In this document: piece by piece, positions 8,983-34,002 of the stretch
How the letters are laid out: every line of letters starts with the position of its first letter
Numbering within the stretch: the first letter of the stretch is position 1
Assembly: GCA_016288295.1 (NCBI GenBank)
Contig: JAEEYV010000027.1
Span: forward strand, 7,797 to 71,796
Length of the DNA stretch: 64,000 nt
Direction of reading: 5' to 3'
Source: Alphaproteobacteria bacterium
GTDB taxonomy: Bacteria; Pseudomonadota; Alphaproteobacteria; RF32; CAG-239
Notes under the pieces: generated by a model
What the model was told of the DNA's origin: nothing
The model's input: only the letters and a program-made list of their open reading frames with translations
The model's database searches: none
Made by a program: the position numbers and the translations under genes

Positions 8983-9951
8983 TTAAGTAACTTCGGTAAC
9001 CGCACGCAGGTTGCCATCGCGATTGATTTGTACAACTCGCAATTTATGATGCATTTCTTCTATAGTTTTGCGGCGATCAAGTGTCGGGTATGAGTGCAAT
9101 ATACGATCAGCAAAAGCTTCATATGCAGCACTGGAACTTTCAGCGTGAATGGTTGCCAGGCAGTTATCATGTCCTGATCCCATAAGCTCCCAAATTGCAC
9201 CGGCGTTGCCGGTTGAAATTTCACCGCCAATAATAGCATCTGGGGTAAAACGAACTACCAAGTCAATAATGCCTTTGTAGTCAAACTGGTTAGTTTGTCC
9301 GGTACGAGACATTACGATATGGACACGATTGGGATGTGGAACTAAAAGCTCGCGTGCATCTTCAATCGTAATAACACGTTTGTGAATATCCAAAATCTTA
9401 AGCAGGTTGTTCAAAAACGTGGTTTTACCAGTTGCTGTCGCGCCACTGACCAGAATGTGATCACCGCGTTTGATGCTAAGCAAAAGACGCTCATACGGAT
9501 CTTCTGGATCTTTTATGTTTTTCAACGGGTTAATATGGTGTAATTGCTCACCTTGTTTTAATCCATAGTCTCCAAGACCAAAAGCAACATCATCACTATG
9601 AACACGGATGGCAATAGCCACGCCTCCGGCGATATCGTCTTCATCATACATTACGTTCTTGCCGCATATAGCTGAAAAACGGTGTTCTCCGGGAATGGTA
9701 GCATAAACTACGGGAGTGCCACCAATCGGGTCGAATGGAAGTTCATATGTGTTTGCAACAATGTAAAGAAGGTCGGTCAAATATTCCTTGGTTAGTTTTT
9801 CGTCTTTGTACATAACCCAAGGATAGGCTCTTTTGCCGCGAAGGCGCAACCATACCTGCCCTGAGCGATTGATTGCAACTTCCTCAATGTTTTCCTGATT
9901 ATACCAGTAAGCCAGAGGGCGTAAAACTGATTCTAATACTTCAAAACTCAT
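8983..9951 (-). CDS. virB11: VirB11-family T4SS traffic ATPase
   Basis: 322 aa. Walker A VSGATATGKTT, then RVITIEDARELL, and His-box-like CLATIHAES. SD gggaga upstream of the ATG. Last gene of the T4SS operon. Confidence 0.85.
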   Translation of the reverse strand: MSFEVLESVLRPLAYWYNQENIEEVAINRSGQVWLRLRGKRAYPWVMYKDEKLTKEYLTDLLYIVANTYELPFDPIGGTPVVYATIPGEHRFSAICGKNVMYDEDDIAGGVAIAIRVHSDDVAFGLGDYGLKQGEQLHHINPLKNIKDPEDPYERLLLSIKRGDHILVSGATATGKTTFLNNLLKILDIHKRVITIEDARELLVPHPNRVHIVMSRTGQTNQFDYKGIIDLVVRFTPDAIIGGEISTGNAGAIWELMGSGHDNCLATIHAESSSAAYEAFADRILHSYPTLDRRKTIEEMHHKLRVVQINRDGNLRAVTEVT

Positions 9952-9963: not shown

Positions 9964-12900
9964 CTAAAACAGTTGTGGAACATCGCTGTCTTCTTCATTG
10001 TTTCGATTGTTCTGGTTGTTGTATCTGCTACTGTTGCTTTGTGACGGCGGTGGCGGTGGCGGGGTAGCTCCAACGTTGGTTCTCCCCTGGTTATCCGGAG
10101 CATATGTTACTGGGGCAGAAACCAGTGCAGGAGAAGAATCACCACTTGAAGAGTTACGTTCTTCTCCGTGTAATTTTTTATAATCCTCTTCCGTAAATAA
10201 AGAATTTTCATATTCATGACTTTCATTAGCTCCTCCTTTTTTGGCTTCATCACGAAAATCATCCATGGTTTTAAGCCATAAATCAACTTTAGGAAAAACA
10301 ATAATTCTGGTGCCGGCAGGAACAACTACGACAGATTTTGTCTTCATGTAATCATTAAGCATATCCTCAAACATTTGTTTGGTGTCGTCTAAGAAATTTT
10401 GTCGTGCATCATTGGTGGCCTGTTGTTTTGAAGTTTCAGAGCTGTTTTCTCCTCCTTTAGAACTGTCTTCGGTTGAGAACAGAACACTTATGCCATTGGT
10501 AATAATTGATGTTACTAACGGCGTTGAATATTTTTTAACCAGTTGACGATCCAGATAACCCAATACCCCTCCTCGACCTTGAGCATCGCCAGTTTTAGCC
10601 GAACTCAAATCAAACATAACACCTTTAGGAGTAATCAATCTTTCCCAGATAATACTGATACGAGCAGAATTCTGACCTCCACTCTCTCCTCCGGTACTAC
10701 CGATTAAATGACTACCAGCAGGGATAATAACGTTTCGACCATCTTCAGCATATACGTTACGTTCAACGTAGGCAGTAACCGGTGCCTCATGTTCAGTATC
10801 AATAGGTCTTGAAATTACTGCCGGAATCGGTTTGTCAGCTAAAATCATCATATCCATATCAACCGGAAGGGTTGAAACAACCTTAGCAATTCCCCAATCT
10901 TTTTGTTTGCCATCAAAATATTCACGACTGAAAGTAGTACTTTTTGAACCGACAAACATACCTTGGCGACGAATTGCTTGGGCTTGTTGATTTGCAACTT
11001 GTTGTCCCGGTGTAGCAGGCGTTTGTTCAAGGCAATCATCACCGAGGCCATGTGCTTCGCAATATCCCTTATTTCCAGGAACAAAGACATTTGATGCTCC
11101 GGGTTTTGGAGCTACCGGTGTTCCGGGTTCTTCCGGCACCTCATCTAAAGGAATTCTTATACGACGTCCGCGAACTTCTCCTGTCTCAGGATCATGCACA
11201 AGATCTCCCTCCACAACGCCTTCAATTTTTCCGGTTTTAGGATTGATTACTTTATCTTGCACAATATCACCAAGATAATTTCCATTTAAATCAAGAGCAA
11301 TATTTGCAGAACGTTTATAATCTCTTTCTTCCAGAGGACGACTACCAACTTTCGGAAGGGGTTCAGAAGAAGATGGTTTTTCTTTTTCGGGATGTTTGAA
11401 CCAATCAAGATGACCGATTACAACTCCGCTTGCATCAACAGCTTTTCCGTCTTTTTCAAGAATTGCAACAATATTTCCATTCTCATCGACAACTTGTCCT
11501 TTCCCATTGTCATATCCCATTGGATTTCCTTCTTTATCATAGACCAGTTTTCTTTTATCAGGTATATAATATTGTAACGGAGTAGCTTTAGCAATAATCT
11601 CCCCCTCCGGATTGATAATATTTCCCTCTTCACCAAGGCTTCCGACAACTTCACCGGTTTGTGAAATTACGTTACCATTTAGCATTAACTCACCAATGAT
11701 ATCATTGTTTTTATTACGTATATGAAAATCACGATTTCCGCGCCCCAAAAGTTCCTGTGAATTGCTTACGGCAAAACCGTGAATTGATTTGGCCAAGTGT
11801 TGATTTGAAAATGATATAATCCCACCGTCAGGGGCAATATAACCTATTGCATTGTTATTGTCGTTATATACGTAAATATCATACAAAGCGTAGCCTATGT
11901 TTTTGTTACCGGACTTAACATTTCCATCAAAATCAACTGAACCTATATTTTTGCCCTGGGAGTCAATAACTTCGCCTTTGTCATTAACTGTTCCCATTAA
12001 TCTGTTAGCATTATTAAAAGCATACCTGTATCTGAACAACATTCCTAAATGAGAGGATGTTTTTGAGTTAACACTATCATCCGGCATAACGTATCCAATA
12101 TCCTGATTATTGTTGTCGATAACTCTACCGTCTAACATACTGCGCCCGACAATTTTATTGTTGAAATCAATAACCGGAACAATCGATACTATTTTGCCGA
12201 TGAGAGATTTTTGCTTATTATAAAGACGGTTTTGACTGTTAATACAGCCGAGATTATCATTTGCATAATTAAGGACACGACCGTCAGATGATGTTGTCCC
12301 GACAGGTTTACCGCCAAAATCAATAATAACTCCGCGAGAAACACCAAAGCCGATAATCGCACCATTATCAGAAATCACTTGAGAATTAGGTAATATTCTA
12401 CCCATATTAACCTCACGGTAGTTCTTAACCTCACCTGTCGGCGTAATTGTTCCAACTAATTCGCATTTGTCATTAACTACTGACATAAAATCAACAGCTT
12501 CACCAACAGCAGCACCACTGTTATCAAAAATTATGCCACTTGAGTTGACTTTGCCGATTGTTGAAGCTCCACTATCCTTGACTTGTCCTTGATTATCTAT
12601 AATGCCAATTATTTTTCCGTCATATGACATTGCCAGACGAGCCGGAGAGCCAAAACCATTAACCGGCATATATGAAGCTTTTTCAGACCAAGCAACAACA
12701 CTATTATCAGGCAATACCTTGCCTATGGGGTGCAATCCTTTATTTAAAACCTGGTTTCCGTCTGCCAAAATGCCTACACTTTGTCCAGTAGAGGTAACTG
12801 CATAAACAGTATTGATTTTACCTCCAAGTACGGAATTATGTTCGTCAATATTGTAACCATATTGGGTTAGATGTCCTCCTTGAGATATCCCGTTGTTAAT

Positions 12901-14274
12901 AATATCACCATTAGGCGAGATTGCACCGACAGATTTTCCTCCAAGGTCAAAAATTGAACCGAGAGAAAATGCGTTACCGTCTATTTTACCATCTGAGGTA
13001 TAAACATATCCAAGCGGTGAAATTATGCGGTTGTCATTACCGACGGATATTGTGCTATTAATACCGGTGATTCCAAGTGCTTGGTTGTTACCATTAAATA
13101 TAACTTTATTTTTTAAGACTGCACCTATAATGCTTCCGCTACTACTAACTGCGAAATCACCTCGTATTGTGCCTAAAGGAGCACCACCAACAGTTACGAC
13201 TTGTCCATTTTTAAGAGAATGACCTCGCAATTCTCCGCGATAATCAAAAATTGGACCTGTTTGAATTAGTTGGCCAATTTGTTTGCCTTCTTTGTCATAT
13301 ATAACATTCCATGGACCAAGCTGTCCTATAATATCTGTACCTTTAGCAATCTTTCCTTCCGGCATAACCCGACCTAAATATTGTCCGGAACTATCTGCCG
13401 CAGTTGATGCAATATCGACCATAAAACCTATTATATTGCCTTTTGTATCAGCAATATTTCCATCAGATTGGAGATAACCGATTAATTTTTCACCATTGAT
13501 TACCTCACCATTAAATGTAACCAATCCAATATATTTTCCGGCATTGCTAAATGCGTATCCTGAACGAACTACACTACCGATAACTTTATTGTCTGAATTA
13601 TATGCAAGGCCGTTTGCCTTAATAAAACCAATCTGTTTGCCATCAAAATCAGTTATTTTTCCGCCCGGAGAAACGTTGCCGATAAATTTTCCTGCTAAAT
13701 CAATAACCATTTTTGAGGAAACAAGGCGTCCATCTAAAACGTAATCATTACCTGAACGTCTGTAAGCATATCCGTCAGATGAAACAAAACCTATATTTTG
13801 CCCTTGAAGGTTGGTATATACACCGTCCCCTGTAAGCCGTCCTACCGTTTTGCCGTCATCTGCATAAATCAGCCCAGGAAATAATACTGCACCTAAAATA
13901 TCAAATTTTTCATCAACAACCAAGCCATTAGGAAGAACTTTGCCGACAATTTTTCCGGTTGCCAGGCGTACAGCTCCGTCAGAGCTAACTTTTCCCAACA
14001 TACGATTATCATTACCTATGGCAACACCTTGCGGAACAACACCGCCGATAAGTTTGCCGGATGAGTTAAGAATCAAACTATCTGCCGTAATATTCCCAAT
14101 AAGGCGATTGTCAAAACTTACAACTTTGCCATCTGGAATAACTTTTCCAATTAATGCACCATTAAAATCAATAGCAGTAATTTCTTGTGCCGACGCAAGG
14201 TTAACATTGGCAAAAATCATTGCAAAAACAAAAAGCAATATGTTTTTAAATTTGCTGTTTACCTTTGACGTCAA
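9964..14274 (-). CDS. virB10: Giant VirB10 homolog: signal/anchor, ~900 aa of D-x-x-G-x-x-I-G repeats, Pro-rich linker, VirB10/TrbI C-terminal domain, and a Pro/Asn-rich tail
   Basis: TTG start 8 nt after the SD ggagg. VirB10 core at about nt 10270-10960 (…IIPAGSHLIGSTGG…GDAQGRGGVLGYLDRQLVKKY…TRIIVFPKVDLWL). Pro-rich segments (EKPSSSEPLPKVGSRP, EEPGTPVAPKPG). Repeats at about nt 11390-14190. Confidence 0.8.
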   Translation of the reverse strand: MTSKVNSKFKNILLFVFAMIFANVNLASAQEITAIDFNGALIGKVIPDGKVVSFDNRLIGNITADSLILNSSGKLIGGVVPQGVAIGNDNRMLGKVSSDGAVRLATGKIVGKVLPNGLVVDEKFDILGAVLFPGLIYADDGKTVGRLTGDGVYTNLQGQNIGFVSSDGYAYRRSGNDYVLDGRLVSSKMVIDLAGKFIGNVSPGGKITDFDGKQIGFIKANGLAYNSDNKVIGSVVRSGYAFSNAGKYIGLVTFNGEVINGEKLIGYLQSDGNIADTKGNIIGFMVDIASTAADSSGQYLGRVMPEGKIAKGTDIIGQLGPWNVIYDKEGKQIGQLIQTGPIFDYRGELRGHSLKNGQVVTVGGAPLGTIRGDFAVSSSGSIIGAVLKNKVIFNGNNQALGITGINSTISVGNDNRIISPLGYVYTSDGKIDGNAFSLGSIFDLGGKSVGAISPNGDIINNGISQGGHLTQYGYNIDEHNSVLGGKINTVYAVTSTGQSVGILADGNQVLNKGLHPIGKVLPDNSVVAWSEKASYMPVNGFGSPARLAMSYDGKIIGIIDNQGQVKDSGASTIGKVNSSGIIFDNSGAAVGEAVDFMSVVNDKCELVGTITPTGEVKNYREVNMGRILPNSQVISDNGAIIGFGVSRGVIIDFGGKPVGTTSSDGRVLNYANDNLGCINSQNRLYNKQKSLIGKIVSIVPVIDFNNKIVGRSMLDGRVIDNNNQDIGYVMPDDSVNSKTSSHLGMLFRYRYAFNNANRLMGTVNDKGEVIDSQGKNIGSVDFDGNVKSGNKNIGYALYDIYVYNDNNNAIGYIAPDGGIISFSNQHLAKSIHGFAVSNSQELLGRGNRDFHIRNKNNDIIGELMLNGNVISQTGEVVGSLGEEGNIINPEGEIIAKATPLQYYIPDKRKLVYDKEGNPMGYDNGKGQVVDENGNIVAILEKDGKAVDASGVVIGHLDWFKHPEKEKPSSSEPLPKVGSRPLEERDYKRSANIALDLNGNYLGDIVQDKVINPKTGKIEGVVEGDLVHDPETGEVRGRRIRIPLDEVPEEPGTPVAPKPGASNVFVPGNKGYCEAHGLGDDCLEQTPATPGQQVANQQAQAIRRQGMFVGSKSTTFSREYFDGKQKDWGIAKVVSTLPVDMDMMILADKPIPAVISRPIDTEHEAPVTAYVERNVYAEDGRNVIIPAGSHLIGSTGGESGGQNSARISIIWERLITPKGVMFDLSSAKTGDAQGRGGVLGYLDRQLVKKYSTPLVTSIITNGISVLFSTEDSSKGGENSSETSKQQATNDARQNFLDDTKQMFEDMLNDYMKTKSVVVVPAGTRIIVFPKVDLWLKTMDDFRDEAKKGGANESHEYENSLFTEEDYKKLHGEERNSSSGDSSPALVSAPVTYAPDNQGRTNVGATPPPPPPSQSNSSRYNNQNNRNNEEDSDVPQLF

Positions 14275-14276
14275 TT

Positions 14277-17200
14277 TTAGTTCCTCCGATTTTTTGCTAC
14301 TTCTTGCAAAGCATATCCGGCAACACGTTTATCCAGATTAATAAATGAGCCGTTACTCTTCATATACCCGATAATTTTATTGTTGGTATCAACTACTGAT
14401 CCGTCAGAGGCCAGGCGACCAACGTATCGACCGGTATTACCGAGAATAGTGGTTCCAATTTTATAAATACGCCCCAAAATTTCATCTTCGTTATCTACCG
14501 CTAAATCGGTTGATAAAACTCGACCGATGACAGATCCACGATGATCAATAACCATGCCATTGGCTGCAATATAACCAACAACTTTGTCCTCATTGTTTAT
14601 AACTAAATCACCATCAACGATTTCACCTATAAGTTTTCCTGAATTATTGAGCACATTACCGTCAGACAAAGATCTACCCATTTTTATGTTCGTAGTATCG
14701 ATAATTGAACCGTCAGGCATAACCGAGCCAACAACTTTTCCGGCAAAATCAATAACTGTTCCACGTTTAGCAAGACTCAAGTTCTTATCTGTAGAACCTC
14801 CGGGAAGAATAGCTGTTATGTTTTTACCATTTAAATCAATGACATCTCCGACCGAGTTTGTGTAACCCTTGTAAGATCCCCAAACATCCATAACAATTCC
14901 TTCGGGAATTATCTCTCCGATTATAACAGATTTGTTATTCAAAACCTTGCTATCAGGAGTGCTACGACCAACGGTTTTTCCATCAAGAGCAATTATGCGA
15001 CCATCAGATAAACCATAACCAAGGAAGGAACCATCATAACCTATTGCTGACCCTCTTCTTATAATGCCACCTTTAAGATTGCCTTTGTTGTCAAAATAGT
15101 ATCCTTTGGCATCAAGGCGACCGAGTTTTTCACCAAAACGATTTATTACTTCACTATTATAAACTGCCATACCTATGATTTTGCCACTAAAATCAGCAAC
15201 TTTTCCGGTAAATGCTTGGTACCCAGGAACATTATTGTAAAATGCGGCGCCATCACCATAAAGCTTACCAACAGATGCACCTTTACCATCGTAAACATTG
15301 CCGTCAGGAAATAAATGCCCTAATATTTTGCCCTGGTGATCAATTAGTGTGGTTCTGTTCGGCATTGCAACGCCAATAATTTTGCTGTTTTCATCAATAA
15401 CAGCATTGTTAGGCAACAAACGCCCCGAAGTCTGTCCACGGATAGGGACACGTGCTGCAGAATTAACCATACCGATAAAGTTACCTTCTAAATCGTAGGC
15501 ATTGGTGTTTTGCAGTATATGACCAATGTACGCACCTTTTTTATCAAAAATGTCACCATATGTGCCAACACAACCAACCGGTTTGGCTTGTTGCGACAAA
15601 ACAAGACCGTTCTCGTTTACCAGACCCAACAGGTTACCATCATAAGAAACGGCAACTCCTGAACGGGCAACTCCACCTATAATATCACCTTTTTCATTTA
15701 ATACTGTACCATCAGGATTAATGCAACCAACGTAGTTGCCATTTTGGCGGACTATGCCATCGGTTTCAACTTCGCCGATTTTGGTACACGAATCGTCAAA
15801 AACAGGACCTGGAACTACAACTTCACCAATATAATTACCACTTTCATCAACTACTATGCCATCGACATTAACTTTATAGCCGGTTTCTTGATTTGATTTA
15901 CGAACAATACCGTCTTTTTCAAGATACCCAATATTTTTGCACCCTTGGCCGACTACAAGACCACCGCGGACCATACGTGCAACAATATTGGAGCCATTAG
16001 GATTTTTTACCAACCCATTGGATAATACTCTACCTACAATCTGCTTTTGACTATTCTCAATTGTACCATTATTGTTAACAATTCCAAGTACTTCTCCTTT
16101 GGGAGTAATAGGTATCATTTGGTCTTGAACAAGATGTCCGACGATATTAGACGTATTAGTCACTATACGACCGTCTGCATCTATTGAACCAATGACATTA
16201 CCGTTGACATCAAAAACTTCACCATCATTTCCAATATAACCGGTAATTTTGTTGTTTTTATCCAACAGAAGTTTGGCAAAATCGCCAACCTCTCCTATTT
16301 CTTGTCCATCAGCAGTAATAATCTTGCCTGATGGGGCCATTTTTCCTAAAACATTGCCGTTAAAATCAATTGCATTGCCATTTTCATCAACATAACCGAT
16401 AACTTTACCGCTTTTGTCGTACGCCAGTTGTTTGGGAGTTGTACCCGTACTGCCAATAATCCTCCCATCGTCATCAACTACCGTACCATCATTAAGTAAT
16501 TTACCAATTTTATTACCGTCAAAATCATGGACAACACCTTGATCATCAACATATCCAATAGCATTACCTTTTTGACCGTAAGCAAGGCGATATCCTTGTT
16601 CTTTGGTATCACCAACTTTACCGATTACATTACCTCTGTCATCAACAATCGCACCGTCTTCAAGTAACTTACCGATTTCTCTACCGTTCACATCGCGGAC
16701 GGAACCTTGATCATCAACAAAACCTATGATTTTGCCATCAGGACTATATGCCAGACGGTAATTTTTCTCATTATCACCACCGGATTTACCAATTACATTG
16801 CCTCTGTCATCGACAATCGTACCGTCTTCAAGTAACTTACCGATTTCTCTACCATTCACATCATGGACGGAACCTTGATCATCAACAAAACCTATGATTT
16901 TGCCATCAGCATCACGAGCGAGATGAAATCCTTTTTCGTTAATTTCTCCGGCCTTTCCGATAATATTACCTTCATTATCAACAATTGAACCATCGTTACG
17001 CATATTGCCAATTTCTTCACCATTTATGTCATATACAATACCGTTATCATCAATATAACCTATGTTATTGCCATTGCTATCATAAGCTAAAGCTTTAACA
17101 TTTGATTCATTATCAACATTAGCTATAACCTTGCCATTTGCATCAACAATCGCCCCGCCAGAAGATACTTTGCCGACTACTTTGCCATCAAAATCATGAA

Positions 17201-19187
17201 CATCACCATTTTCATCGACGTAACCAATGGCGTTGCCATCATTATCATAGGCTAATGCTTTGATGTCAGATGTTTTGCCAACATTGGCTATAACTTTGCC
17301 GTTTGCATCAACAATCGCCCCGCCAGAAGATACTTTGCCTATTGTATTTCCTTTGAAATCATGGACTTCTCCATCTTTATCTACGTAGCCTATAACTTTG
17401 CCATCATTATCATAGGCTAATGCTTTGATGTCAGACGTTTTGCCAACATTGGCTATAACTTTGCCGTTTGCATCAACAATCGCCCCGCCAGAAGATACTT
17501 TGCCGACTACTTTGCCATCAAAATCATGAACATCACCATTTTCATCGACGTAACCAATGGCGTTGCCATCATTATCATAGGCTAATGCTTTGAACTTTGA
17601 ACTTTTATCGCTATTGGGGGCTGCATGACCAATAACATTGCCTGCTCCATCAACAATGGTTCCATTTGAAGAAACCGTACCTATTTTTTTGCCGTCAGCG
17701 CCAATAACATTATTTGCATTATCAACATATCCTATAACTTTTCCGTCATTATCATAAGCCAACAAAGCGCCAGAAGTTGTTAACTTATTACCGTTTTTAT
17801 CAATTATTGTTCCGTCAGGACGAATCCTTCCTATAGAATTGCCTTGAAAATCACGGGCTGTACCATCGTCATCAACATAGCCGACGACTTTACCAGAAGA
17901 ATCTCGAACTAATTTGCGGTCAACACTACGTGACGGATTTTTTTTGCTTGCAATAACATTGCCATTTTTATCAACACTACCGACGATTTCTCCGTCAGCA
18001 TCGACTACTGTGCCATCAGGCATGACAACGCCGACTATATTGCCGTTTTCATCGACCGCTACTCTGCCGGTTTTATTAACGTGTCCTATGGTGCTGCCAG
18101 TACTATCAACAACTTCCCCTTTATCGTTTAACCGTCCTATAACGTTATCACTCATATCGGTTACAGTACCGTCAGCCATAACTTGTCCGATAATATTGCC
18201 AGCATCATCGTAAACATATCCCATGTCAACAGCACGTCCGATAACATCACCATCATTATTGACTACCGTACCATCAGGCAACATGCGACCGGTAACATTA
18301 TTATTAAGGTCAACTACCGAACCATCGGGATTAACATAACCTATGACGTTGCCTTTATCATCAAAAACCAATTTGCGATTGTTGGCAATTCCAATAATAT
18401 TGCCTTCGCCATCAATAGCCAGTCCGGTTTCATTAATACGACCGATAACATTGCCTTTATCATCGTGGACATAACCACTTTCGTCTGCATATCCGATAAT
18501 TGTGCCATCGGGGCCAACTACGGCTCGGGTCATTGTTTTGCCGTCTGTGCCGGAAGAGAACTTGCCAGAAGATGTGTCTTCTATTGTTTCACAAAAATTG
18601 CAGTCTTCTTTAGTTACAGCATTACCATAAACCGGAACTTTTGCAGACTTTGAACTTGTTTGTGCAAGGTGGGTTTCGTGCCAGGAAATAATGAAATTAT
18701 TTTGGACGTTTCCTGTAACTACTGGTGTCCAAGACATAGTAATATCACAAGTTTCGGAACCATGAAGCGTTTTGCCGGAACATTTTTCTGTATATTTAAA
18801 ACCATCAAAAGGGGCTTCGGCTAGTTTAACTTCTGTTATATTTATAGAAGCTTTACCATTTGTACCGACAGTTAAAACATTTTTGGCATCAGTTCCTACA
18901 AGGACTTGTCCCAAGGGGACAGGATTGGGTGTTGTAGTTATTGGGGGAGTACCATCATCCGGTGTAGAAAATTGAATTTCAGCACTAGGAGCAGTAGTAG
19001 TTTCGTCCGGAAAAGCGGTATCATTTTCAGGAAACTCAATAGAAGCTTCATCTTTTTTATCTCCGTTTGAAAACAGGAGATAAACGCCCAACAGAAAAAT
19101 AATAAAAGAAGTGATACCAACCGCAAGAATTATGCGGTTGGTCTTTTTTATGTAACTTTCCGAATGTGTTAAAACTTCTTTACTCAT
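14277..19187 (-). CDS. 1636-aa membrane-anchored repeat protein (N-terminal TM, Ig/ASH-like Cys-containing domain, then ~1400 aa of the repeat also found in VirB10); T4SS-associated, function unknown
   Basis: The ATG overlaps the virB9 stop (ATGA at 19184-19187), and the stop lies 2 nt before the virB10 start. TM segment IILAVGITSFIIFLLGVYLLF. Repeats resemble VDENGNIVGVVMPDGTVVDADGEIVGSVDKNGNVI throughout. Confidence 0.75.
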   Translation of the reverse strand: MSKEVLTHSESYIKKTNRIILAVGITSFIIFLLGVYLLFSNGDKKDEASIEFPENDTAFPDETTTAPSAEIQFSTPDDGTPPITTTPNPVPLGQVLVGTDAKNVLTVGTNGKASINITEVKLAEAPFDGFKYTEKCSGKTLHGSETCDITMSWTPVVTGNVQNNFIISWHETHLAQTSSKSAKVPVYGNAVTKEDCNFCETIEDTSSGKFSSGTDGKTMTRAVVGPDGTIIGYADESGYVHDDKGNVIGRINETGLAIDGEGNIIGIANNRKLVFDDKGNVIGYVNPDGSVVDLNNNVTGRMLPDGTVVNNDGDVIGRAVDMGYVYDDAGNIIGQVMADGTVTDMSDNVIGRLNDKGEVVDSTGSTIGHVNKTGRVAVDENGNIVGVVMPDGTVVDADGEIVGSVDKNGNVIASKKNPSRSVDRKLVRDSSGKVVGYVDDDGTARDFQGNSIGRIRPDGTIIDKNGNKLTTSGALLAYDNDGKVIGYVDNANNVIGADGKKIGTVSSNGTIVDGAGNVIGHAAPNSDKSSKFKALAYDNDGNAIGYVDENGDVHDFDGKVVGKVSSGGAIVDANGKVIANVGKTSDIKALAYDNDGKVIGYVDKDGEVHDFKGNTIGKVSSGGAIVDANGKVIANVGKTSDIKALAYDNDGNAIGYVDENGDVHDFDGKVVGKVSSGGAIVDANGKVIANVDNESNVKALAYDSNGNNIGYIDDNGIVYDINGEEIGNMRNDGSIVDNEGNIIGKAGEINEKGFHLARDADGKIIGFVDDQGSVHDVNGREIGKLLEDGTIVDDRGNVIGKSGGDNEKNYRLAYSPDGKIIGFVDDQGSVRDVNGREIGKLLEDGAIVDDRGNVIGKVGDTKEQGYRLAYGQKGNAIGYVDDQGVVHDFDGNKIGKLLNDGTVVDDDGRIIGSTGTTPKQLAYDKSGKVIGYVDENGNAIDFNGNVLGKMAPSGKIITADGQEIGEVGDFAKLLLDKNNKITGYIGNDGEVFDVNGNVIGSIDADGRIVTNTSNIVGHLVQDQMIPITPKGEVLGIVNNNGTIENSQKQIVGRVLSNGLVKNPNGSNIVARMVRGGLVVGQGCKNIGYLEKDGIVRKSNQETGYKVNVDGIVVDESGNYIGEVVVPGPVFDDSCTKIGEVETDGIVRQNGNYVGCINPDGTVLNEKGDIIGGVARSGVAVSYDGNLLGLVNENGLVLSQQAKPVGCVGTYGDIFDKKGAYIGHILQNTNAYDLEGNFIGMVNSAARVPIRGQTSGRLLPNNAVIDENSKIIGVAMPNRTTLIDHQGKILGHLFPDGNVYDGKGASVGKLYGDGAAFYNNVPGYQAFTGKVADFSGKIIGMAVYNSEVINRFGEKLGRLDAKGYYFDNKGNLKGGIIRRGSAIGYDGSFLGYGLSDGRIIALDGKTVGRSTPDSKVLNNKSVIIGEIIPEGIVMDVWGSYKGYTNSVGDVIDLNGKNITAILPGGSTDKNLSLAKRGTVIDFAGKVVGSVMPDGSIIDTTNIKMGRSLSDGNVLNNSGKLIGEIVDGDLVINNEDKVVGYIAANGMVIDHRGSVIGRVLSTDLAVDNEDEILGRIYKIGTTILGNTGRYVGRLASDGSVVDTNNKIIGYMKSNGSFINLDKRVAGYALQEVAKNRRN
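16430..17595 (-). repeat. In-frame tandem DNA repeats inside the 1636-aa gene: three 165-bp units (17101-17595) and about four ~168-171-bp units (16430-17100)
   Basis: 103 bp are identical at 17161-17263 and 17491-17593 (330-bp offset); including the preceding 30 bp (17131-17160 vs 17461-17490, one mismatch) gives ~133 bp. ttgccgtttgcatcaacaatcgccccgccagaagatactttgcc recurs at 165-bp spacing. The 16633 and 16801 units are near-identical (168-bp offset). Confidence 0.9.
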
Positions 19188-20785
19188 TGTGTCCTAACTA
19201 CGCTACAAAATACACCACTTCTACCAAGACGACTGCAAACACCATCGCCTTCTTCAAGAGATTTGACCGGTCCTATACGGAGATGGAACAGTTCTTTACC
19301 CTGACCATCCGCCGGTGCATCAACAGAAAAGAACGGATCATACTTGCCAAGAATCTTGGAATGTTTATTTGATACATCATCCCATAAATTTTCCAGATTT
19401 TCGACATTGGCATCAGTTCCCAATTCTATGGAAATATTTGAACCACTACTGTCTACAAAGCCTGAACCATATCGATATTGATTAGCGATAGATGAGGCCG
19501 CAGGGTCAAATTGTTGCGTATTCTGAATACGATGCATTTTTGAATAATCAAAGTCAGCCGCACCACCAGAGCCGGGGAACATGGCTCCCCCATTACCCAT
19601 ATCTTCACTATAATCTCCTGTCGGTTCATTGGCCGCGCCATTTACAGGACCGGAACTGAAATCAGGATATGAAGCTCCGCCGGCCTTTGATTGAGCGCCA
19701 GCCGGAATTTTTGCGCCACGGTCCCATTCTTTATCAGTAACATCTTTGGCGTAACTTGCATCTTCAAGTCCTGCGTCATCAGAACGACGAAGTTTAAGGC
19801 AAACAATCCTTTTTCCGTTTCTTAAAACCATATCGCCTATTCCCTCAACGATGATTAAGCGATTATTAGGGCCTTTAGTACGAAATCCGACTGGAACCTC
19901 CATTCTTTCAACAATGAGAGAAACAACCGGCCTTTGGGTCATATAAAGGGCTCTTTTTCCCAAATCAATGTATGTAAAAATGTCATCTCGCCATACTCGT
20001 TCGGGAGCGATGACAACATCATCTGCGTTGGGTACATAAACCTCAATATCAAAACGAAATTGCGTGGGATCAAGAGGAATGTTTTCGACCCAATTATTTT
20101 TTTGATCCCGTTTAGTAAAAGTTGAATCAACCGATTTTCCCCCTTTACCAAAATAAGACGTAGCATTTATTCGACCACCGCCGCCGGACGACATGGCTTT
20201 GGCGCCACCATTATTGCCACCGACCACGTCAATATCAACAATGGCATTGGTTAAACGTTCTGTATTAACGCCTTCACTGCGCGCATAAAAGACATAACGG
20301 TTGCCTGAGCGCCCAAAAACAACGATATTGGTATCAACACCGACATTAGCTCCGGCAGTTGGATAAAGCAATAAGGTATTAGGTCCGGAAATTTGCCCAT
20401 CAAATGTGGAATTATCACCAATATAAATATCTTCAACCATTTCCCACTCGGGAAAATTTATCAGTGTAATCATACCTTCACGCAGGCGCAAAGGCAAAAC
20501 TAAATCCGGAGACCAATAGTATTTCGAATAAGCCGGTTTGCTTTGGCCTTCGCCAAGATTTTGCAAAGGATCAAGCCAGGCACTTTGGATCATTCCCAAA
20601 GAGTTGAACCCCATGTAACTCATATCCATAGGTTGATACATTCCCTGCGATTGTGCCGTAGCCTGATCTGCTCCATTAGCCACGGATTGAGCATTGCTCA
20701 TTTCCGTAAACAGAAAACTGCTTAAAACAACAATTGCAGCCCCTGCACATTTAAAAAATATAGCTCTATTCATATTATTGTACAT
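19184..20785 (-). CDS. virB9: VirB9/CagX-family outer-membrane core protein with a C-terminal SPOR-like domain
   Basis: Signal peptide. VirB9 N-domain (PLRLREGMITLINFPEWEMVEDIYIGD…NIVVFGRSGNRYVFYARS). C-domain (VWRDDIFTYIDLG…LIIVEGIGDMVLRNGKRIVCLKL). The last ~80 aa end in …ELFHLRIGPVKSLEEGDGVCSRLGRSGVFCSVV. Confidence 0.8.
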   Translation of the reverse strand: MYNNMNRAIFFKCAGAAIVVLSSFLFTEMSNAQSVANGADQATAQSQGMYQPMDMSYMGFNSLGMIQSAWLDPLQNLGEGQSKPAYSKYYWSPDLVLPLRLREGMITLINFPEWEMVEDIYIGDNSTFDGQISGPNTLLLYPTAGANVGVDTNIVVFGRSGNRYVFYARSEGVNTERLTNAIVDIDVVGGNNGGAKAMSSGGGGRINATSYFGKGGKSVDSTFTKRDQKNNWVENIPLDPTQFRFDIEVYVPNADDVVIAPERVWRDDIFTYIDLGKRALYMTQRPVVSLIVERMEVPVGFRTKGPNNRLIIVEGIGDMVLRNGKRIVCLKLRRSDDAGLEDASYAKDVTDKEWDRGAKIPAGAQSKAGGASYPDFSSGPVNGAANEPTGDYSEDMGNGGAMFPGSGGAADFDYSKMHRIQNTQQFDPAASSIANQYRYGSGFVDSSGSNISIELGTDANVENLENLWDDVSNKHSKILGKYDPFFSVDAPADGQGKELFHLRIGPVKSLEEGDGVCSRLGRSGVFCSVVRTQ

Positions 20786-21506
20786 TATTTAACCTCAAAG
20801 AATAACTGGTTACTGTGAAGCCTGCCGGATTTTTCAGGCGTTCTTTATATTTAACTCTTTTGTGCCTATATGTTATTTTTAAAGAAGCAGTCCAGTATTT
20901 AATGATTGGCTCTTCTGCATCGGGGAACATATCACGAGTTTCGTATTCAACCTGCCAAATTCCCGTACTCAATTCGTTTGCTGTTACAATACGAACATCA
21001 CGAACCATATGACGTTCTTTAATCAACTCAAGAGCTCGACTAGCCGTGTTTTTTGAGAAATCATCATAGACAGTAGGAGATGACATTTCCTGAATAGCTC
21101 CGCCCGGAGACCATCTGGCTTCCGCCTCCAAGATGTCTTTATTAAAACTACTGCGCATTAAAACGTACTGACGAACAAAAACTTCAGTTATGCTTCTTAC
21201 TTCCGCAAGATTGCGTTTTAACGGTTGGATATTGTAGACTTGCTCTTCTTTGTTTTGGAAATTTAGCAGAAACGGCTCTATTCTGTGTAGCGGAATAACC
21301 TGAGATATTGCCAACAAAAGCACAATATTACAGCAGATGCTTACCGCCATAATGATAGCGAATGCGCGAGCCGTCCATAGATATCTTTTTTCGGCGACAT
21401 TAGCAACAAATACGTCTGATGATGAATACGAATCGCGCTTGCGACGAACACTGCTGTTGCCTAAAAGGCGCTGATTACTATTATTATTTCCTAACTGTTG
21501 AGCCAT
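20775..21506 (-). CDS. virB8: VirB8-family protein (paralog 2)
   Basis: Start moved to ATG 21506 (SD agggg 5 nt upstream). The track start at 21521 is TTG. N-terminal TM segment, then an NTF2-like periplasmic domain with FVRQYVLMRSSFN and WTASLKITY. Confidence 0.75.
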   Translation of the reverse strand: MAQQLGNNNSNQRLLGNSSVRRKRDSYSSSDVFVANVAEKRYLWTARAFAIIMAVSICCNIVLLLAISQVIPLHRIEPFLLNFQNKEEQVYNIQPLKRNLAEVRSITEVFVRQYVLMRSSFNKDILEAEARWSPGGAIQEMSSPTVYDDFSKNTASRALELIKERHMVRDVRIVTANELSTGIWQVEYETRDMFPDAEEPIIKYWTASLKITYRHKRVKYKERLKNPAGFTVTSYSLRLNNVQ

Positions 21507-21527
21507 GATAACCCCTAACAAAGCCGG

Positions 21528-21716
21528 CTAAATTGTTTCAATAAACCAATCCGGCAAGGATTGAGGGAGTTCGACCTGAAGGCAAGCACATGGGGAGAGT
21601 TTGAGCTCATCAACGTCTTTACCGATTTCAACCGGCTCCGGCTCGTAGTATGATCCCATTAGCCCGCACCCAGCCAAAAACACGATGACAAGCAATAATA
21701 CTGCTTTTTTAATCAT
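21528..21716 (-). CDS. Small lipoprotein, VirB7-like by size and position
   Basis: 62 aa. MIKKAVLLLVIVFLAGC has lipobox LAG|C. The gene sits between the two virB8 paralogs, upstream of virB9. Confidence 0.55.
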   Translation of the reverse strand: MIKKAVLLLVIVFLAGCGLMGSYYEPEPVEIGKDVDELKLSPCACLQVELPQSLPDWFIETI

Positions 21717-21806
21717 AAGAATATTCCTCTGTTAACTATAGTTAGTTAGACTTTAGTATCTTTTTTTACAAAAGTCTAAATATAACAAACTTATTAACAG
21801 GCAATA

Positions 21807-22553
21807 TTAAAAATGAGCACGACTTTGACTGTATTTGGTAACGGTGAACCCCAGAGGATTAATCAAACGACGTCCCAAAAACAGTCTTTCAGGAATAAAA
21901 TATGCTATAACCGATGCTGTCCAGAAACTGGTATTAAGTGTTAGATATGAACTTCCGCTAGGGCGTGATACTTCATAAATTTTAAAATCGACTTTCCATA
22001 TTGGACTGGTTTGTCCACCAGCTCTTTGTGAAGATATGATTTCAACTTCTCTGTTAATCAATTTTTCCTTGTTTTTGCTTTCAATACCTTCACGTGTTTT
22101 ATTAAATTCTGTAAAAACTTTATTTGAAGATAAAAAATGAATGATTCCTCCCGGATGCCAACGAGATCTCATCTCCATAAAATCGTTAACATACGAGTTA
22201 CGATATATAATATATTGGCGAACAAATATCTCCATAAATTTGTCTTTCGAGGCCATATCATAGGCAATAGGCTCATATCTAACCGCGTCATCTGAACTAT
22301 TTTGGTTAATGATCAAAAACGGTTCCACCGAAACCATCGGAGCTAATTTAAATAAGGAAAGTGAAGCTGCTAAGAAAACTGCCAAAGAAACAAAAGCTGC
22401 AAAAATAAAAAAACGTGAAAGCCAAAGATAATAGTACGTCTTAACCCCGTATTTTTCTTTTTCGGACTGACCGAGAAAGTGGTAGGTTCTACCACTTTTA
22501 TCGGTCAAAGCCATTATTTTGGTGTTTTCAAGAATATTCCCTAATTTGCTCAT
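21807..22553 (-). CDS. virB8: VirB8-family protein (paralog 1)
   Basis: 248 aa. TM segment FFIFAAFVSLAVFLAASLSLF. FVRQYIIYRNSYV and WTASVIAYF parallel paralog 2. Confidence 0.75.
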   Translation of the reverse strand: MSKLGNILENTKIMALTDKSGRTYHFLGQSEKEKYGVKTYYYLWLSRFFIFAAFVSLAVFLAASLSLFKLAPMVSVEPFLIINQNSSDDAVRYEPIAYDMASKDKFMEIFVRQYIIYRNSYVNDFMEMRSRWHPGGIIHFLSSNKVFTEFNKTREGIESKNKEKLINREVEIISSQRAGGQTSPIWKVDFKIYEVSRPSGSSYLTLNTSFWTASVIAYFIPERLFLGRRLINPLGFTVTKYSQSRAHF

Positions 22554-28320: not shown

Positions 28321-28332
28321 AATCTGCCTCCA

Positions 28333-30336: not shown

Positions 30337-30413
30337 ACCACCCTCCATATAGAGACTCACCTCTATCTTATGGTAGCATGAAAAAATATGTTTATAAACT
30401 TATTTTTGCGGAA

Positions 30414-33621: not shown

Positions 33622-33632
33622 AGCAACCTCCT

Positions 33633-33968: not shown

Positions 33969-34002
33969 ATTTTTCTCCTTTATTTATTGTTAGGTGGGTA
34001 AG

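Follow-up and report, generated by a model that had tools for sequence, protein, structure and literature searches.

A giant VirB10 with beta-flower-type repeats, split into two genes, in type IV secretion loci of gut and rumen Alphaproteobacteria

Introduction

What are the two adjacent giant proteins, both filled with one short repeat, that are encoded between VirB9 and a VirB11-type ATPase in a type IV secretion system (T4SS) locus of an uncultured alphaproteobacterium? The locus is chromosomal, not plasmid-borne, and was found on contig JAEEYV010000027.1 of assembly GCA_016288295.1; the whole 64,000-nucleotide stretch that was analysed is referred to as the window. Of the T4SS subunits, only VirB10 is believed to require a covalently continuous chain from the inner to the outer membrane, along which ATP-driven conformational signals are passed. 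The initial annotation of the window identified the 1436-aa ORF as VirB10 and treated the 1636-aa protein that precedes it as a separate one. Here we asked how the two proteins relate to each other, to VirB10 and to known repeat families, and what role the repeats might have.

Results

The genes of the locus follow the order VirB8, VirB7-like, VirB8, VirB9, VirB10-N, VirB10-C and VirB11, with VirB4, VirB3-like and VirB2-like genes upstream. The Pfam scan identified CagX (E 2e-11) and SPOR (22.1 bits, cut-off 21) domains in VirB9, and one VirB6-like protein of the locus carries an M23 peptidase. The VirB11-type ATPase had the same position in all related loci. The features were as follows (position in the window, strand, description and basis).

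8983..9951, minus, VirB11-type ATPase (Pfam T2SSE, E 9e-20)
9964..14274, minus, VirB10-C, 1436 aa, 153 kDa, TTG start; predicted secreted, outer-membrane-pore half
9967..10272, minus, low-complexity C-terminal tail of VirB10-C with the conserved end ..PPPPP..VPQLF (orthologue C-termini compared)
10273..10845, minus, TrbI/VirB10 C-terminal barrel domain, residues 1144-1334 (Pfam PF03743)
10885..11265, minus, Pro/Glu-rich linker from array to TrbI, with Cys pair 1072/1081 (sequence)
11266..14184, minus, VirB10-C array of 17-aa beta-hairpins, residues 31-~1003, ~57 units, ~975 aa (Pfam, autocorrelation, AF2)
13741..14184, minus, N-terminal module of mature VirB10-C, residues 31-178 (conservation among orthologues)
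14185..14274, minus, predicted Sec-type signal peptide, residues 1-30 (..NLASA / QEITAIDFNG; read by eye)
14272..14290, minus, VirB10-N/VirB10-C junction (read directly from the sequence)
14277..19187, minus, VirB10-N, 1636 aa, 172 kDa; inner-membrane-anchored N-terminal half of the split giant VirB10
14310..14741, minus, VirB10-N C-terminal module, colinear paralogue of the first ~140 mature VirB10-C residues
14310..18542, minus, VirB10-N array of 17-aa beta-hairpins, residues 216-1626, ~83 units, ~1410 aa (Pfam, autocorrelation, AF2)
16272..17762, minus, zone of 55-56-aa super-repeats (LAYDxxG...), residues 476-972 (TRF, unit lists)
18675..18926, minus, probable Ig-like (ASH/HYDIN-type) periplasmic domain, residues 88-171 (Pfam, sub-threshold)
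19068..19187, minus, cytoplasmic tail (..LTHSxxY[IV][KR]KTNR) and one TM helix, residues ~19-40 (Kyte-Doolittle, conservation)
19184..20785, minus, VirB9/CagX with a C-terminal SPOR (peptidoglycan-binding) domain (Pfam)
20775..22553, minus, two VirB8 genes, 20775-21521 and 21807-22553 (Pfam, E 2e-25 and 1.6e-12)
21528-21716, minus, VirB7-like lipoprotein, 62 aa, lipobox LAGC (ORF between the two VirB8 genes)
30414-32846, minus, VirB4 (NCBIfam VirB4_CagE, E 2e-108)
32836-33126, minus, VirB3-like (size, position and hydrophobic pattern only)
33277-34375, minus, three VirB2-like pilin genes in tandem (size, position and hydrophobic pattern only)

The identification of the 1436-aa ORF as VirB10 was upheld by its TrbI domain, which matched PF03743 at E 1.2e-32 (113.8 bits, cut-off 35) and through which a profile search of the PDB recovered ComB10 (E 7.6e-28), TrwE, TraF and Xanthomonas VirB10. 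By this homology, VirB10-C would be expected to have the two-helix antenna of the outer-membrane pore. A Pro-rich region at residues ~1085-1110 (..PLDEVPEEPGTPVAPKPG..) precedes the barrel domain, and the repeat lies, as first described, between the N-terminus and this linker. The N-terminus itself was reinterpreted. In place of the anchor proposed initially, we read by eye a predicted Sec-type signal peptide with a Lys-rich n-region, an h-region of ~12 residues and an A-x-A site before Q-E; its Kyte-Doolittle maximum was 1.84, compared to 2.63 for the TM helix of VirB10-N (the highest 19-residue window of that protein, at residue 19). The layout was identical in all 18 VirB10-C orthologues inspected and the mature N-terminus was invariant. 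No stretch of VirB10-C is better conserved than the first ~150 mature residues, which have many invariant columns and a majority-residue frequency of 0.86-0.91 versus 0.77-0.80 for the TrbI domain (34 orthologues).

VirB10-N begins with a cytoplasmic tail that is kept in orthologues and in the fused VirB10s described below. Beyond the TM helix, residues 88-171 may form an Ig-like domain: Pfam ASH (E 4.8e-4) and HYDIN_VesB Ig-like (E 8e-3) matched below their gathering scores, and ASH matched 17 of the 34 VirB10-N sequences scanned (the window fragment plus 33 orthologues; best E 6.6e-6), with zero PDB sequence matches to the region. This region holds a Cys pair (136/147) and is followed by CxxC at 196/199. 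The cytoplasmic tail, TM helix and TrbI domain of a VirB10 are therefore divided between the two ORFs, since the TrbI ORF starts with a signal peptide and the tail and TM helix lie on the upstream ORF; the two ORFs jointly carry all three elements, as do the fused proteins P0155 and P0178.

Comparison with these fused relatives showed that the 1636-aa protein is not a separate component but corresponds to the N-terminal part of single-gene VirB10s. The relatives encode one Bflower- and TrbI-containing VirB10 of 2,000-2,600 aa with the same N-terminus, repeats and TrbI domain. Residues 1-200 of VirB10-N matched residues 1-200 of P0155 (E 1e-25), P0178 (9e-19) and P0165 (6e-17), the C-terminus of VirB10-C matched the fused C-termini (E 1e-53 to 1e-60), and full VirB10-N aligned with the N-terminal ~1,600 aa of fused VirB10s, with which end-anchored full-length alignments agreed. 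The VirB10-N gene was found between VirB9 and VirB10-C in every split-type locus; in two other loci (L004 and L005), a fused single gene occupied the position between VirB9 and VirB11 and no repeat gene was present upstream. The nearest VirB10s of normal size (500-680 aa) were without the repeat. A neighbour-joining tree of the TrbI domain recovered the giants as monophyletic in 25/25 bootstraps, as it did the split type (25/25), which was nested within the fused forms in 24/25. In sum, VirB10 gained the repeat, 1,000-2,000 aa of it between the inner-membrane anchor and the TrbI domain, in one gut/rumen alphaproteobacterial clade, with a single later split of the giant gene in the lineage of the window. 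Together, VirB10-N and VirB10-C contain ~2,400 aa of repeat, more than the ~1,500 aa of their fused relatives, indicating a history of duplication and expansion instead of a clean cut. We are highly confident that the two ORFs represent a giant VirB10 with a beta-flower-type repeat, split into VirB10-N and VirB10-C.

At the junction, a GGAGG Shine-Dalgarno sequence is embedded in the last codons of VirB10-N (R-R-N) and is followed by the TAA stop, 2 nt and the TTG start of VirB10-C, with a spacing of 8 nt from GGAGG to TTG. The junctions of loci L002 and L006 displayed gaps of 1-3 nt and different relative frames which, together with the embedded Shine-Dalgarno sequence, indicates two coupled genes and not a frameshift or sequencing error. 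That the ORFs are mis-assembled repeats, a doubt raised with the initial annotation, or that a frameshift turned a single VirB10 gene into a pseudogene, has a vanishingly small probability. Repeats are hard to assemble and the super-repeat zone does differ between two same-species assemblies, but the split layout, signal peptide, embedded Shine-Dalgarno sequence and termini were present in all 80 fetched loci of GTDB species representatives with enough upstream DNA. Numerous independent assemblies from ENA, Logan and NCBI, among them a contig of 1.89 Mb, showed the split too. Lineages varied in gap size and relative frame, and orthologues were 39-76% identical and colinear. The position of the split form as one clade nested among fused forms likewise excludes an assembly artefact. 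With the two-gene layout kept across independent assemblies and species, this explanation is refuted for the architecture and could apply at most to the exact cassette count in the window.

Amongst GTDB species-representative genomes, the split form matched 133 stretches, each of them in a gut or rumen MAG of an uncultured organism; the hosts were humans, ruminants, poultry, mice and rabbits. As it is chromosomal and widespread across these stretches, the T4SS is probably central to the lifestyle of this group of uncultured gut/rumen Alphaproteobacteria.

The repeat that fills both ORFs is short, rich in Gly, Asp, Asn, Ile and Val, and follows the 17-residue consensus D-x-x-G-x-x-I-G-x-V-x-x-D-G-x-V-x; a unit HMM gave the consensus D-N-D-G-K-I-I-G-R-V-D-P-D-G-Y-V, which carries a [DNEQ]xxG hairpin-tip motif. 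Lag-17 residue identity was 0.168 in VirB10-C (residues 31-1010) and 0.214 in VirB10-N (residues 216-1636), far above chance given shuffle maxima of 0.111 and 0.115, respectively (1000 shuffles, largest value over lags 5-59), and the non-repeat parts of both proteins displayed no autocorrelation peak. These data bear out the initial description of one short repeat filling two adjacent giant proteins, together with its extents (measured here as 11266-14184, ~975 aa, and 14310-18542, ~1410 aa) and its estimate of units on the order of a hundred, as we count ~140 by length (~57 in VirB10-C and ~83 in VirB10-N) and 33 and 68, respectively, with a strict unit HMM. Two details were revised. The unit measures 17 aa by autocorrelation and unit HMM, not 19-20 aa, and the weaker repeat reported in the tail of the VirB6-like protein (179-3169) amounts to scattered D-x-x-G turns, with zero unit-HMM matches and zero Bflower or DUF3659 Pfam matches there. 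Autocorrelation gave no dominant super-period of 68, 85 or 102 aa. VirB10-N nevertheless contains a zone of 55-56-aa super-repeats, or cassettes, each consisting of three hairpins and a linker, part of which is visible as a tandem DNA repeat (17114-17593, 165 nt x 2.9, 86% matches by TRF).

The repeat belongs to the existing Pfam families Bflower_2/Bflower and DUF3659. Whereas the initial annotation noted a loose likeness to DUF3659-type repeats, PF21785 (Bflower_2, cut-off 38) matched VirB10-N at E 4.6e-105 (345.7 bits, 14 stretches) and VirB10-C at E 2.6e-51 (172.6 bits, 7 stretches), and PF21784 (Bflower, cut-off 25) matched them at E 2.5e-58 (195.9 bits) and E 3.2e-15 (57 bits), with a Bflower match in 34/34 VirB10-N sequences scanned. 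The likeness to DUF3659 suggested at the outset was confirmed in VirB10-N (PF12396, E 3e-47, 158.7 bits, above the gathering cut-off of 24.8); VirB10-C reached only 16.9 bits. The beta-flower fold was named in 2023 from AlphaFold models, without an assigned function, and the [DNEQ]xxG hairpin-tip motif is the defining mark of the family (Durairaj et al. 2023, PMC10584680). Pfam matches to Pentapeptide were absent, the period being 17 and not 5. Precomputed Pfam hits in a public collection placed Bflower with TrbI in all of the best 120 of 1042 homologues, so that the architecture is already in databases, but unremarked. The searchable literature yielded no paper linking VirB10 to a beta-flower/DUF3659 repeat or describing the split arrangement, in keeping with the initial statement that no described T4SS with this repeat was known.

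AlphaFold2 (AF2) models supported a hairpin fold. Residues 28-1010 of VirB10-C formed a single confident all-beta body (pLDDT 88.4, pTM 0.83) in which ~116 short strands, of 5 and 3-4 residues, alternate every 17 aa, with pLDDT <50 at model residues 933-963, the end of the array. Residues 437-1636 of VirB10-N were likewise all-beta, the C-terminal ~700 aa at pLDDT 80-92; confidence fell at each cassette linker and a helix was placed at model residues 1191-1199. Short antiparallel hairpins were modelled at high confidence in both arrays.

In sequence and in local fold, the repeat shows an affinity to YD/RHS hairpins, and the original exclusion of YD/RHS was accordingly too strong. RHS_repeat matched all 34 VirB10-N sequences scanned at E<=0.01 (best E 9.8e-24), scoring 25.9 bits overall in VirB10-N (cut-off 22) with no single stretch above the cut-off, and zero matches were found in VirB10-C. 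For both models (E 8.5e-26 and 2.9e-39), the PDB structures ranked best by Foldseek were Rhs cores, teneurin YD shells and Tc toxin BC, with a probability of up to 0.99 over ~1,100 columns, as local alignments only with TM-scores of just 0.06-0.10 and an rmsd to the compact cocoon of ~29 A. Taken with the pTM of 0.83, this rmsd would suggest that the model is compact and not drawn out into a long rod, and each ~1,000-aa array could on this basis be envisaged as closing into a hollow, Rhs/YD-like shell around cargo or a channel part. We regard such a cocoon as quite improbable. The TM-scores mean that the global shapes are not superposable, Bflower scores were more than 10x the RHS_repeat score, and the DPxG[LWM] autoproteolysis motif was absent from both VirB10-N and VirB10-C, as was a C-terminal toxin, the C-termini being a short helix and TrbI. 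The 17-aa hairpin, with strands of 3-5 residues, is also shorter than YD repeats.

Both arrays aligned position by position between the orthologues of different species, suggestive of purifying selection, and Cys pairs were conserved in VirB10-N and VirB10-C orthologues, with even Cys numbers in both. Amongst 70 VirB10-C variants of one human-gut species, median identity was 99.7% and length was constant. VirB10-N orthologues listed for three species-level clusters had one length each (1581, 1266 and 1370 aa) in independent assemblies, a few shorter entries aside, although between species the length ranged from 1,050 to 1,840 aa. In the cassette zone, 'A-type' copies numbered three in the window, two in L001 and one in L002; L001, a same-species contig with 99.8% DNA identity elsewhere, had lost one 'A-type' unit and gained one 'C/D-type' unit in frame, and a sister species had two fewer units.

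This variation, the 165-nt tandem DNA repeat and the spread of VirB10-N lengths could be read as signs that the arrays, or the 55-aa cassettes if not the whole, form a variable module exposed at the surface for contact or immune evasion. They would then reach the cell surface, tuning secretion or escaping host or phage recognition, and copy number would shift by in-frame recombination, as for CagY (PMC3585145, PMC5954226, PMC2194252). We consider this unlikely, though the least so of the alternatives. VirB10-C is near-identical and constant in length, VirB10-N keeps one length per species-level cluster, the arrays are colinear between species, and topology rules place both in the periplasm; the single strain-level difference is possibly a short-read assembly error in near-identical repeats.

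A peptidoglycan or cell-wall anchor, in which the arrays fix the machine to the sacculus like choline-binding or clostridial hairpin repeats, was judged slightly less probable again. The annotations of some beta-flower relatives read 'cell wall-binding protein' (PMC10584680), and the locus has other wall-related additions in the SPOR domain of VirB9 and the M23 peptidase of the VirB6-like protein. Choline-binding protein F and a TcdA repeat fragment were amongst the weaker Foldseek matches of the VirB10-N model, but at probability <=0.07 and TM <=0.1, and Pfam CW_binding gave zero matches. Moreover, ~140 units per protein pair are more than an anchor needs, and neither the split nor the extreme conservation of the VirB10-C N-terminus would be explained. 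A role as wall anchor could coexist with one as scaffold.

The two halves are related at the ends that adjoin in the gene order. The C-terminal module of VirB10-N, beyond which lie a short terminal helix and the conserved last residues ..PEVAKNRRN, aligned with the N-terminus of mature VirB10-C across 141 aa with 36% identity and a single gap (E 6e-26), and register-shifted alignments of the modules scored lower. In most of 80 loci, the best match of a VirB10-C N-terminal probe lay ~160 aa before the VirB10-N C-terminus. The paralogy of the two modules and the conservation of that in VirB10-C are at most suggestive of contact between them.

Discussion

Of the explanations considered, the best is that the arrays act as a scaffold through which the two halves of VirB10 reassociate, an overall account to which we assign a probability of roughly 55%. 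The mechanism itself, as follows, falls slightly short of an even chance. Both arrays would be periplasmic, because VirB10-N has an N-in anchor, VirB10-C is predicted to be Sec-exported and the conserved Cys numbers are even. As rigid all-beta bodies they may enlarge the periplasmic part of the T4SS, comparable to the repeats of CagY and DotG, and may re-join VirB10-N and VirB10-C non-covalently. The likely joint would pair the VirB10-N C-terminal module with the paralogous VirB10-C N-terminal module, restoring the link from inner to outer membrane that canonical VirB10 makes as one chain, and the 55-aa cassettes, which lie early in the VirB10-N array, could provide a length-adjustable, more flexible spacer. 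More tentatively, and less probably, VirB10 may be functional as two polypeptides that complementary hairpin modules of beta-flower/YD-like type join to each other in the periplasm, with the arrays as self-associating rigid building material; if true, this would be the first cellular role for the 'dark' beta-flower fold.

Until now, the beta-flower/DUF3659 fold was known only from AlphaFold models without function, and the present locus places it in a defined machine. [quoted passage not shown] They are, however, closed shallow barrels of ~96 aa with 8, 10 or 12 strands and 4-, 5- or 6-fold symmetry, often with a C-terminal helix or lipoprotein signal, and their hairpins measure ~19 aa, with longer loops, whereas here 57-83 uninterrupted 17-aa hairpins occur in a secretion-machine subunit. 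The RHS/YD shells of T6SS Rhs effectors, teneurins and Tc toxin BC are likewise long hairpin arrays with a Y/x-D-x-x-G turn, but differ in global shape (TM 0.06-0.10) and in their autoproteolysis motif, toxin or T6SS link.

The rvh T4SS of Rickettsiales is, like this one, a chromosomal alphaproteobacterial system and not plasmid-borne, and has a duplicated VirB8 and enlarged accessory proteins; its VirB10 is, to our knowledge, of normal size and without such repeats. The analogies first drawn with CagY and DotG are fitting. Helicobacter pylori CagY is also a VirB10-family protein enlarged several-fold by repeats N-terminal to the TrbI domain, but as a single polypeptide and with a middle repeat region that is not invariant within species, as the VirB10-C array is. 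We know of no 17-aa beta-hairpins amongst the CagY repeats, and the two repeat sequences are unrelated, as the profile search of the PDB returned no CagY chain at E<=0.01. In CagY, the repeats stem from direct DNA repeats able to recombine in frame (PMC3585145, PMC5954226, PMC2194252), and one account describes CagY as unlike other VirB10 orthologues in having a large repeat region (PMC5954226). The DotG proteins of Legionella and Coxiella, of 1,000-1,500 aa, have a C-terminal TrbI domain after a repeat region of variable length (PMC6761968); their pentapeptide repeats are of a different family and DotG is not split. After CagY and DotG, this is the third independent enlargement of VirB10 by an internal repeat, with a different fold, which lends weight to the view that the evolvable element setting T4SS size is the periplasmic portion of VirB10.

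Canonical VirB10s (Agrobacterium tumefaciens VirB10, pKM101 TraF, R388 TrwE) share with the protein described here a homologous TrbI domain, a Pro-rich segment and the position between virB9 and virB11, and VirB10-N supplies their short cytoplasmic tail and single TM helix. They are single chains of ~380-630 aa across both membranes, in contrast to two chains totalling 3,072 aa, of which ~2,400 aa are hairpins. This natural, ancient and widespread split offers a ready test of whether, as modelled, VirB10 mechanically links the inner-membrane ATPases to the outer-membrane gate.

A 17-aa repeat fills two adjacent VirB10 genes

Two adjacent genes of the window are built of a single short repeat in which Gly, Asp, Asn, Ile and Val are abundant. 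We refer to their products as VirB10-N, the upstream protein, and VirB10-C, which bears the TrbI domain.

14277-19187, minus strand: VirB10-N ORF, 1636 aa, ATG start
9964-14274, minus strand: VirB10-C ORF, 1436 aa, TTG start
17114-17593: tandem DNA repeat, 165 nt x 2.9, the DNA-level form of the VirB10-N super-repeat

Autocorrelation of residues peaked at lag 17 and its multiples in both proteins, and not at 19-20, which corrects the unit length of 19-20 aa proposed in the initial annotation. Identity at lag 17 was 0.168 in residues 31-1010 of VirB10-C and 0.214 in residues 216-1636 of VirB10-N, against shuffle maxima (highest over lags 5-59 in 1000 shuffles) of 0.111 and 0.115, respectively; the peak was absent from the non-repeat ends of both proteins. 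An iterated HMM of the unit yielded the consensus D-N-D-G-K-I-I-G-R-V-D-P-D-G-Y-V(-x) and recovered 68 units in VirB10-N and 33 in VirB10-C, with array lengths leaving room for about 83 and 57. VirB10-N additionally carries a 55-56-aa super-repeat, comprising three hairpins and a linker, in a region that we call the cassette zone. Only these two ORFs matched the unit HMM within the window, and only VirB10-N and VirB10-C genes did so across 1.82 Mb of related loci. The tail of the VirB6-like protein at 179-3169, where a weaker form of the repeat had been claimed, contained scattered D-x-x-G turns and no match to the unit HMM.

By profile similarity, the repeat falls firmly into existing Pfam families: PF21785 Bflower_2 (E 4.6e-105 in VirB10-N, 2.6e-51 in VirB10-C), PF21784 Bflower (2.5e-58 and 3.2e-15) and PF12396 DUF3659 (3e-47 in VirB10-N, sub-threshold in VirB10-C). 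The beta-flower families were set up by Durairaj et al. 2023 (PMC10584680) for a fold seen in AlphaFold models only, a shallow barrel of 8-12 short strands with hairpin 'petals' tipped by [DNEQ]xxG. The initial annotation had raised the prospect of a well-characterized family already known in VirB10 homologues; a family exists in Pfam, yet it is neither well characterized nor described in VirB10. In NCBI records, members bear the names 'TrbI/VirB10 family protein', 'DUF3659 domain-containing protein' or 'hypothetical protein'. The RHS_repeat model matched all 34 VirB10-N sequences scanned (the window fragment and 33 orthologues; best E 9.8e-24), pointing to a genuine affinity with RHS/YD hairpins. 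In a PDB search, a profile built from the entire VirB10 family matched only the TrbI domains of ComB10, TrwE, TraF and Xanthomonas VirB10, and no solved structure matching the repeat; on this result the CagY repeat family was rejected for the array. Pentapeptide repeats were rejected given the lack of a Pfam match and the period of 17.

Predicted structure of the arrays

AlphaFold2 modelling of VirB10-C residues 28-1010 with 34 orthologues gave a mean pLDDT of 88.4 and a pTM of 0.83. The model comprises about 116 strands, alternating between 5 and 3-4 residues at exact 17-aa spacing, with disorder only in the segment directly before the Pro-rich linker. For VirB10-N residues 437-1636, pLDDT was 80-92 over the C-terminal ~700 aa, which end in a short helix, whilst the model was weak in the cassette zone and confidence dipped at every 55-aa linker. 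The first ~150 positions of its alignment were smeared over the N-termini of orthologues, probably adding to the low confidence at the start of the model.

In Foldseek searches of the PDB, both models ranked Rhs cores, teneurin YD shells and Tc toxin BC first (E down to 2.9e-39), with beta-propellers lower in the lists. TM-scores for the top matches were only 0.06-0.10 with an rmsd of ~30 A, so the likeness to Rhs/YD shells is local and the global shape is not shared. Membership of the Rhs family was rejected on these scores and on the lack of DPxG[LWM] motifs in both proteins, and an Rhs-like shell, favoured by the Foldseek ranking and the hairpin affinity, ranks below the scaffold proposed later. 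The arrays may be packed closed barrels or one wide spiral. Because pTM is high and the rmsd to a compact cocoon is only ~29 A across ~1,100 columns, we favour a compact, rigid body over a 30-nm rod.

VirB10 is split into two genes

Homologue searches returned two architectures, both with repeats and TrbI. More than 1,000 proteins of 1,420-1,770 aa resemble VirB10-C, and a second group of 2,000-2,600 aa covers 82-100 % of VirB10-N. Genomes with the long form, represented by two fused-type loci (L004 and L005), are arranged VirB8-VirB9-[one giant VirB10]-VirB11 and have no separate repeat gene; in the remaining genomes a repeat protein of 1,050-1,840 aa is always encoded 1-3 nt upstream of VirB10. 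The first 200 aa of VirB10-N lie outside the repeat and hold a conserved cytoplasmic tail, a TM helix, an Ig-like region and a CxxCE motif. They match the N-terminal 200 aa of the giants with E-values between 1e-25 and 6e-17, and the C-terminus of VirB10-C aligns to the C-termini of the giants (E 1e-53 to 1e-60). The putative Ig-like domain had no match in a PDB sequence search. Full-length end-anchored alignments agree with VirB10-N and VirB10-C as halves of the giants, and on these alignments the upstream 1636-aa ORF encodes one half of VirB10.

An NJ tree of the TrbI domain, rooted on normal-size VirB10s without the repeat, recovered the repeat-bearing giants as monophyletic in 25/25 bootstraps, the split type as monophyletic in 25/25 and the split type as nested within fused forms in 24/25, indicating that the giant VirB10 arose once and later split once. 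The last ~150 aa of VirB10-N are paralogous to, and colinear with, the N-terminal ~140 residues of mature VirB10-C (36 % identity, one gap), at an equivalent relative position in most of the 80 loci retrieved. Repeat sequence totals ~2,400 aa in the two halves but ~1,500 aa in fused proteins, and the split therefore probably proceeded by overlapping duplication, then complementary truncation and expansion.

At the junction (..AAT CGG AGG AAC TAA AA TTG..), the GGAGG ribosome-binding site of VirB10-C lies inside the last VirB10-N codons, 8 nt before the TTG start. The conserved ..NRRN C-terminus of VirB10-N is encoded by the codons that contain this site (AAT CGG AGG AAC; 14275-14290, minus strand), and its conservation may thus be partly at the RNA level. 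VirB10-C begins with a Lys-rich n-region, a hydrophobic core of ~12 residues and A-x-A followed by Q-E; this layout was found in 18/18 orthologues inspected, with an invariant mature N-terminus (EITAIDFNG.L.GKVIPDGKVV). The initial annotation had placed a membrane anchor here, but the A-x-A site and a Kyte-Doolittle value of 1.84, versus 2.63 in VirB10-N, predict a Sec signal peptide, and by hydropathy the real membrane anchor sits on VirB10-N. A pseudogene or frameshift was rejected given the conserved embedded ribosome-binding site, signal-peptide layout and invariant mature N-terminus.

The T4SS locus and its neighbours

The two genes belong to a complete-looking chromosomal T4SS, with ribosomal protein S1 and a tRNA nearby. 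The operon runs from three VirB2-like pilins through VirB3-like, VirB4, four ORFs without assignment, VirB8, a VirB7-like lipoprotein, a second VirB8, VirB9, VirB10-N and VirB10-C to VirB11; an M23-peptidase/VirB6 fusion and an HTH regulator are divergently transcribed. No VirD4 or relaxase was seen within the 64-kb window.

Features of the T4SS locus and adjoining genes
179-3169, plus strand: M23 peptidase fused to a TrbL/VirB6 membrane domain, 996 aa
4348-8947, plus strand: conserved ORFs of 683, 177, 453 and 214 aa, inside or beside the locus
9967-10272, minus strand: VirB10-C tail after TrbI, ~100 aa, low-complexity; conserved poly-Pro near its end, VPQLF as C-terminal motif
19184-20785, minus strand: VirB9/CagX homologue with a C-terminal SPOR (peptidoglycan-binding) domain (22.1 bits; Pfam threshold 21)
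21528-21716, minus strand: VirB7-like lipoprotein, 62 aa (MIKKAVLLLVIVFLAGC..., lipobox LAGC), between the two VirB8 genes
22566-30360, minus strand: conserved ORFs of 1283, 417, 217 and 675 aa, inside or beside the locus
32836-33126, minus strand: VirB3-like gene, upstream of VirB4
33277-34375, minus strand: three tandem VirB2-like pilin genes, 111-114 aa, signal peptide and two hydrophobic segments, upstream of VirB4
36336-44103, plus strand: type IVb pilus-like cluster (TcpQ, secretin, PilO accessory protein, T2SSE ATPase, T2SSF platform), adjoining the T4SS

The VirB2-like and VirB3-like genes were assigned by size, position and hydrophobic pattern only. The 62-aa lipoprotein is probably the VirB7 equivalent; a 62-aa ORF occupies the equivalent place in two split-type loci, L002 and L006. 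The M23/VirB6 fusion may take the place of VirB1 as an in-built wall hydrolase, and the pilus-like cluster recalls R64 thin-pilus genes. None of the eight conserved ORFs had a Pfam or NCBIfam match. The plus-strand set also occurs in L002, L006 and L001, a contig of the same species, and the 1283-aa ORF, cut at a contig end, in L002 and L006. One fused VirB10 relative (P0155) ends in PELF.

Distribution and variation

The split layout was found in 133 matching stretches of GTDB species-representative genomes. The 80 that were fetched are all MAGs from gut or rumen. Their records carry the labels Alphaproteobacteria, 'Azospirillum sp.', Rhodospirillales or Candidatus Scatocola, and a few labels evidently stem from mis-binning; hosts include humans, ruminants, deer, chickens, mice and rabbits. 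We take the group to be family CAG-239 of order RF32 in GTDB. Two MAGs with the alphaproteobacterial locus are labelled Bacteroidaceae (L017) and Lactobacillaceae (L062), and a further entry (P0227) Lactobacillales, which probably reflects faulty binning or labelling. L001, from another sample, has the same two genes with flanking DNA 99.8 % identical to the window. An assembly artefact, which the initial annotation had kept in view, was rejected for the two-gene layout on this recurrence.

In alignments of orthologues the VirB10-C repeats stay in register, with a mean column identity of 57 %, and conservation within the protein is highest in the first 150 mature residues (0.86-0.91, versus 0.77-0.80 for TrbI). 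Seventy variants from one human-gut species had constant length and a median identity of 99.7 %. VirB10-N is more plastic between species; in three 90 % clusters, the members listed share one length each, a few shorter entries aside. An exact look-up of the 1636-aa protein in a public collection gave no match, as same-species L001 differs in the cassette zone. This single strain-level difference is a swap of cassette units in residues 597-760, with three 'A-type' copies in the window versus two in L001, which has an extra 'C/D-type' copy; a sister species has two fewer units. Either CagY-type in-frame recombination or a mistake in short-read assembly could account for the swap. A surface-exposed variable module, to which such plasticity would be suited, ranks below a scaffold when set beside the constancy of VirB10-C.

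Proposed role and comparison with known systems

In canonical T4SSs, a single VirB10 chain joins the inner-membrane ATPases to the outer-membrane pore. Given the domain order, split and export signals observed here, this link would be rebuilt from two chains, with the paralogous, highly conserved terminal modules of VirB10-N and VirB10-C as the best candidates for the joint. A periplasmic location is expected for both arrays, since VirB10-N is anchored N-in, VirB10-C is Sec-exported and Cys residues occur in conserved pairs (8 in VirB10-N, 4 in VirB10-C). On this model the arrays would be a rigid all-beta scaffold giving the machine a larger periplasmic part, with the cassette zone as a more flexible, length-adjustable spacer. 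Anchoring to peptidoglycan, a reading in favour of which the SPOR domain of VirB9 can be cited, ranks below the scaffold; the arrays could serve in both roles.

Open-access papers and bioRxiv yielded no report tying VirB10 or a T4SS to DUF3659, beta-flower or RHS/YD repeats, in line with the initial view that no described T4SS has this repeat, and no description of a T4SS from the RF32/CAG-239/Scatocola group. The repeat family was already in Pfam; what appears to be new is a VirB10 expansion with a new fold, combined with gene fission. Specialists would not expect VirB10 to be split, nor a core T4SS subunit to hold ~140 beta-flower hairpins; the organisms have yet to be cultured, however, and the mechanism is a proposal. 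The closest functional analogues are CagY, a VirB10-family protein enlarged through internal repeats (PMC5954226, PMC3585145), and DotG, another member of the family enlarged in this way (PMC6761968). The analogy drawn initially holds in this respect, as does the lack of sequence relationship: the internal repeats of both are unrelated to the 17-aa unit and, unlike VirB10-N/VirB10-C, neither CagY nor DotG is split.
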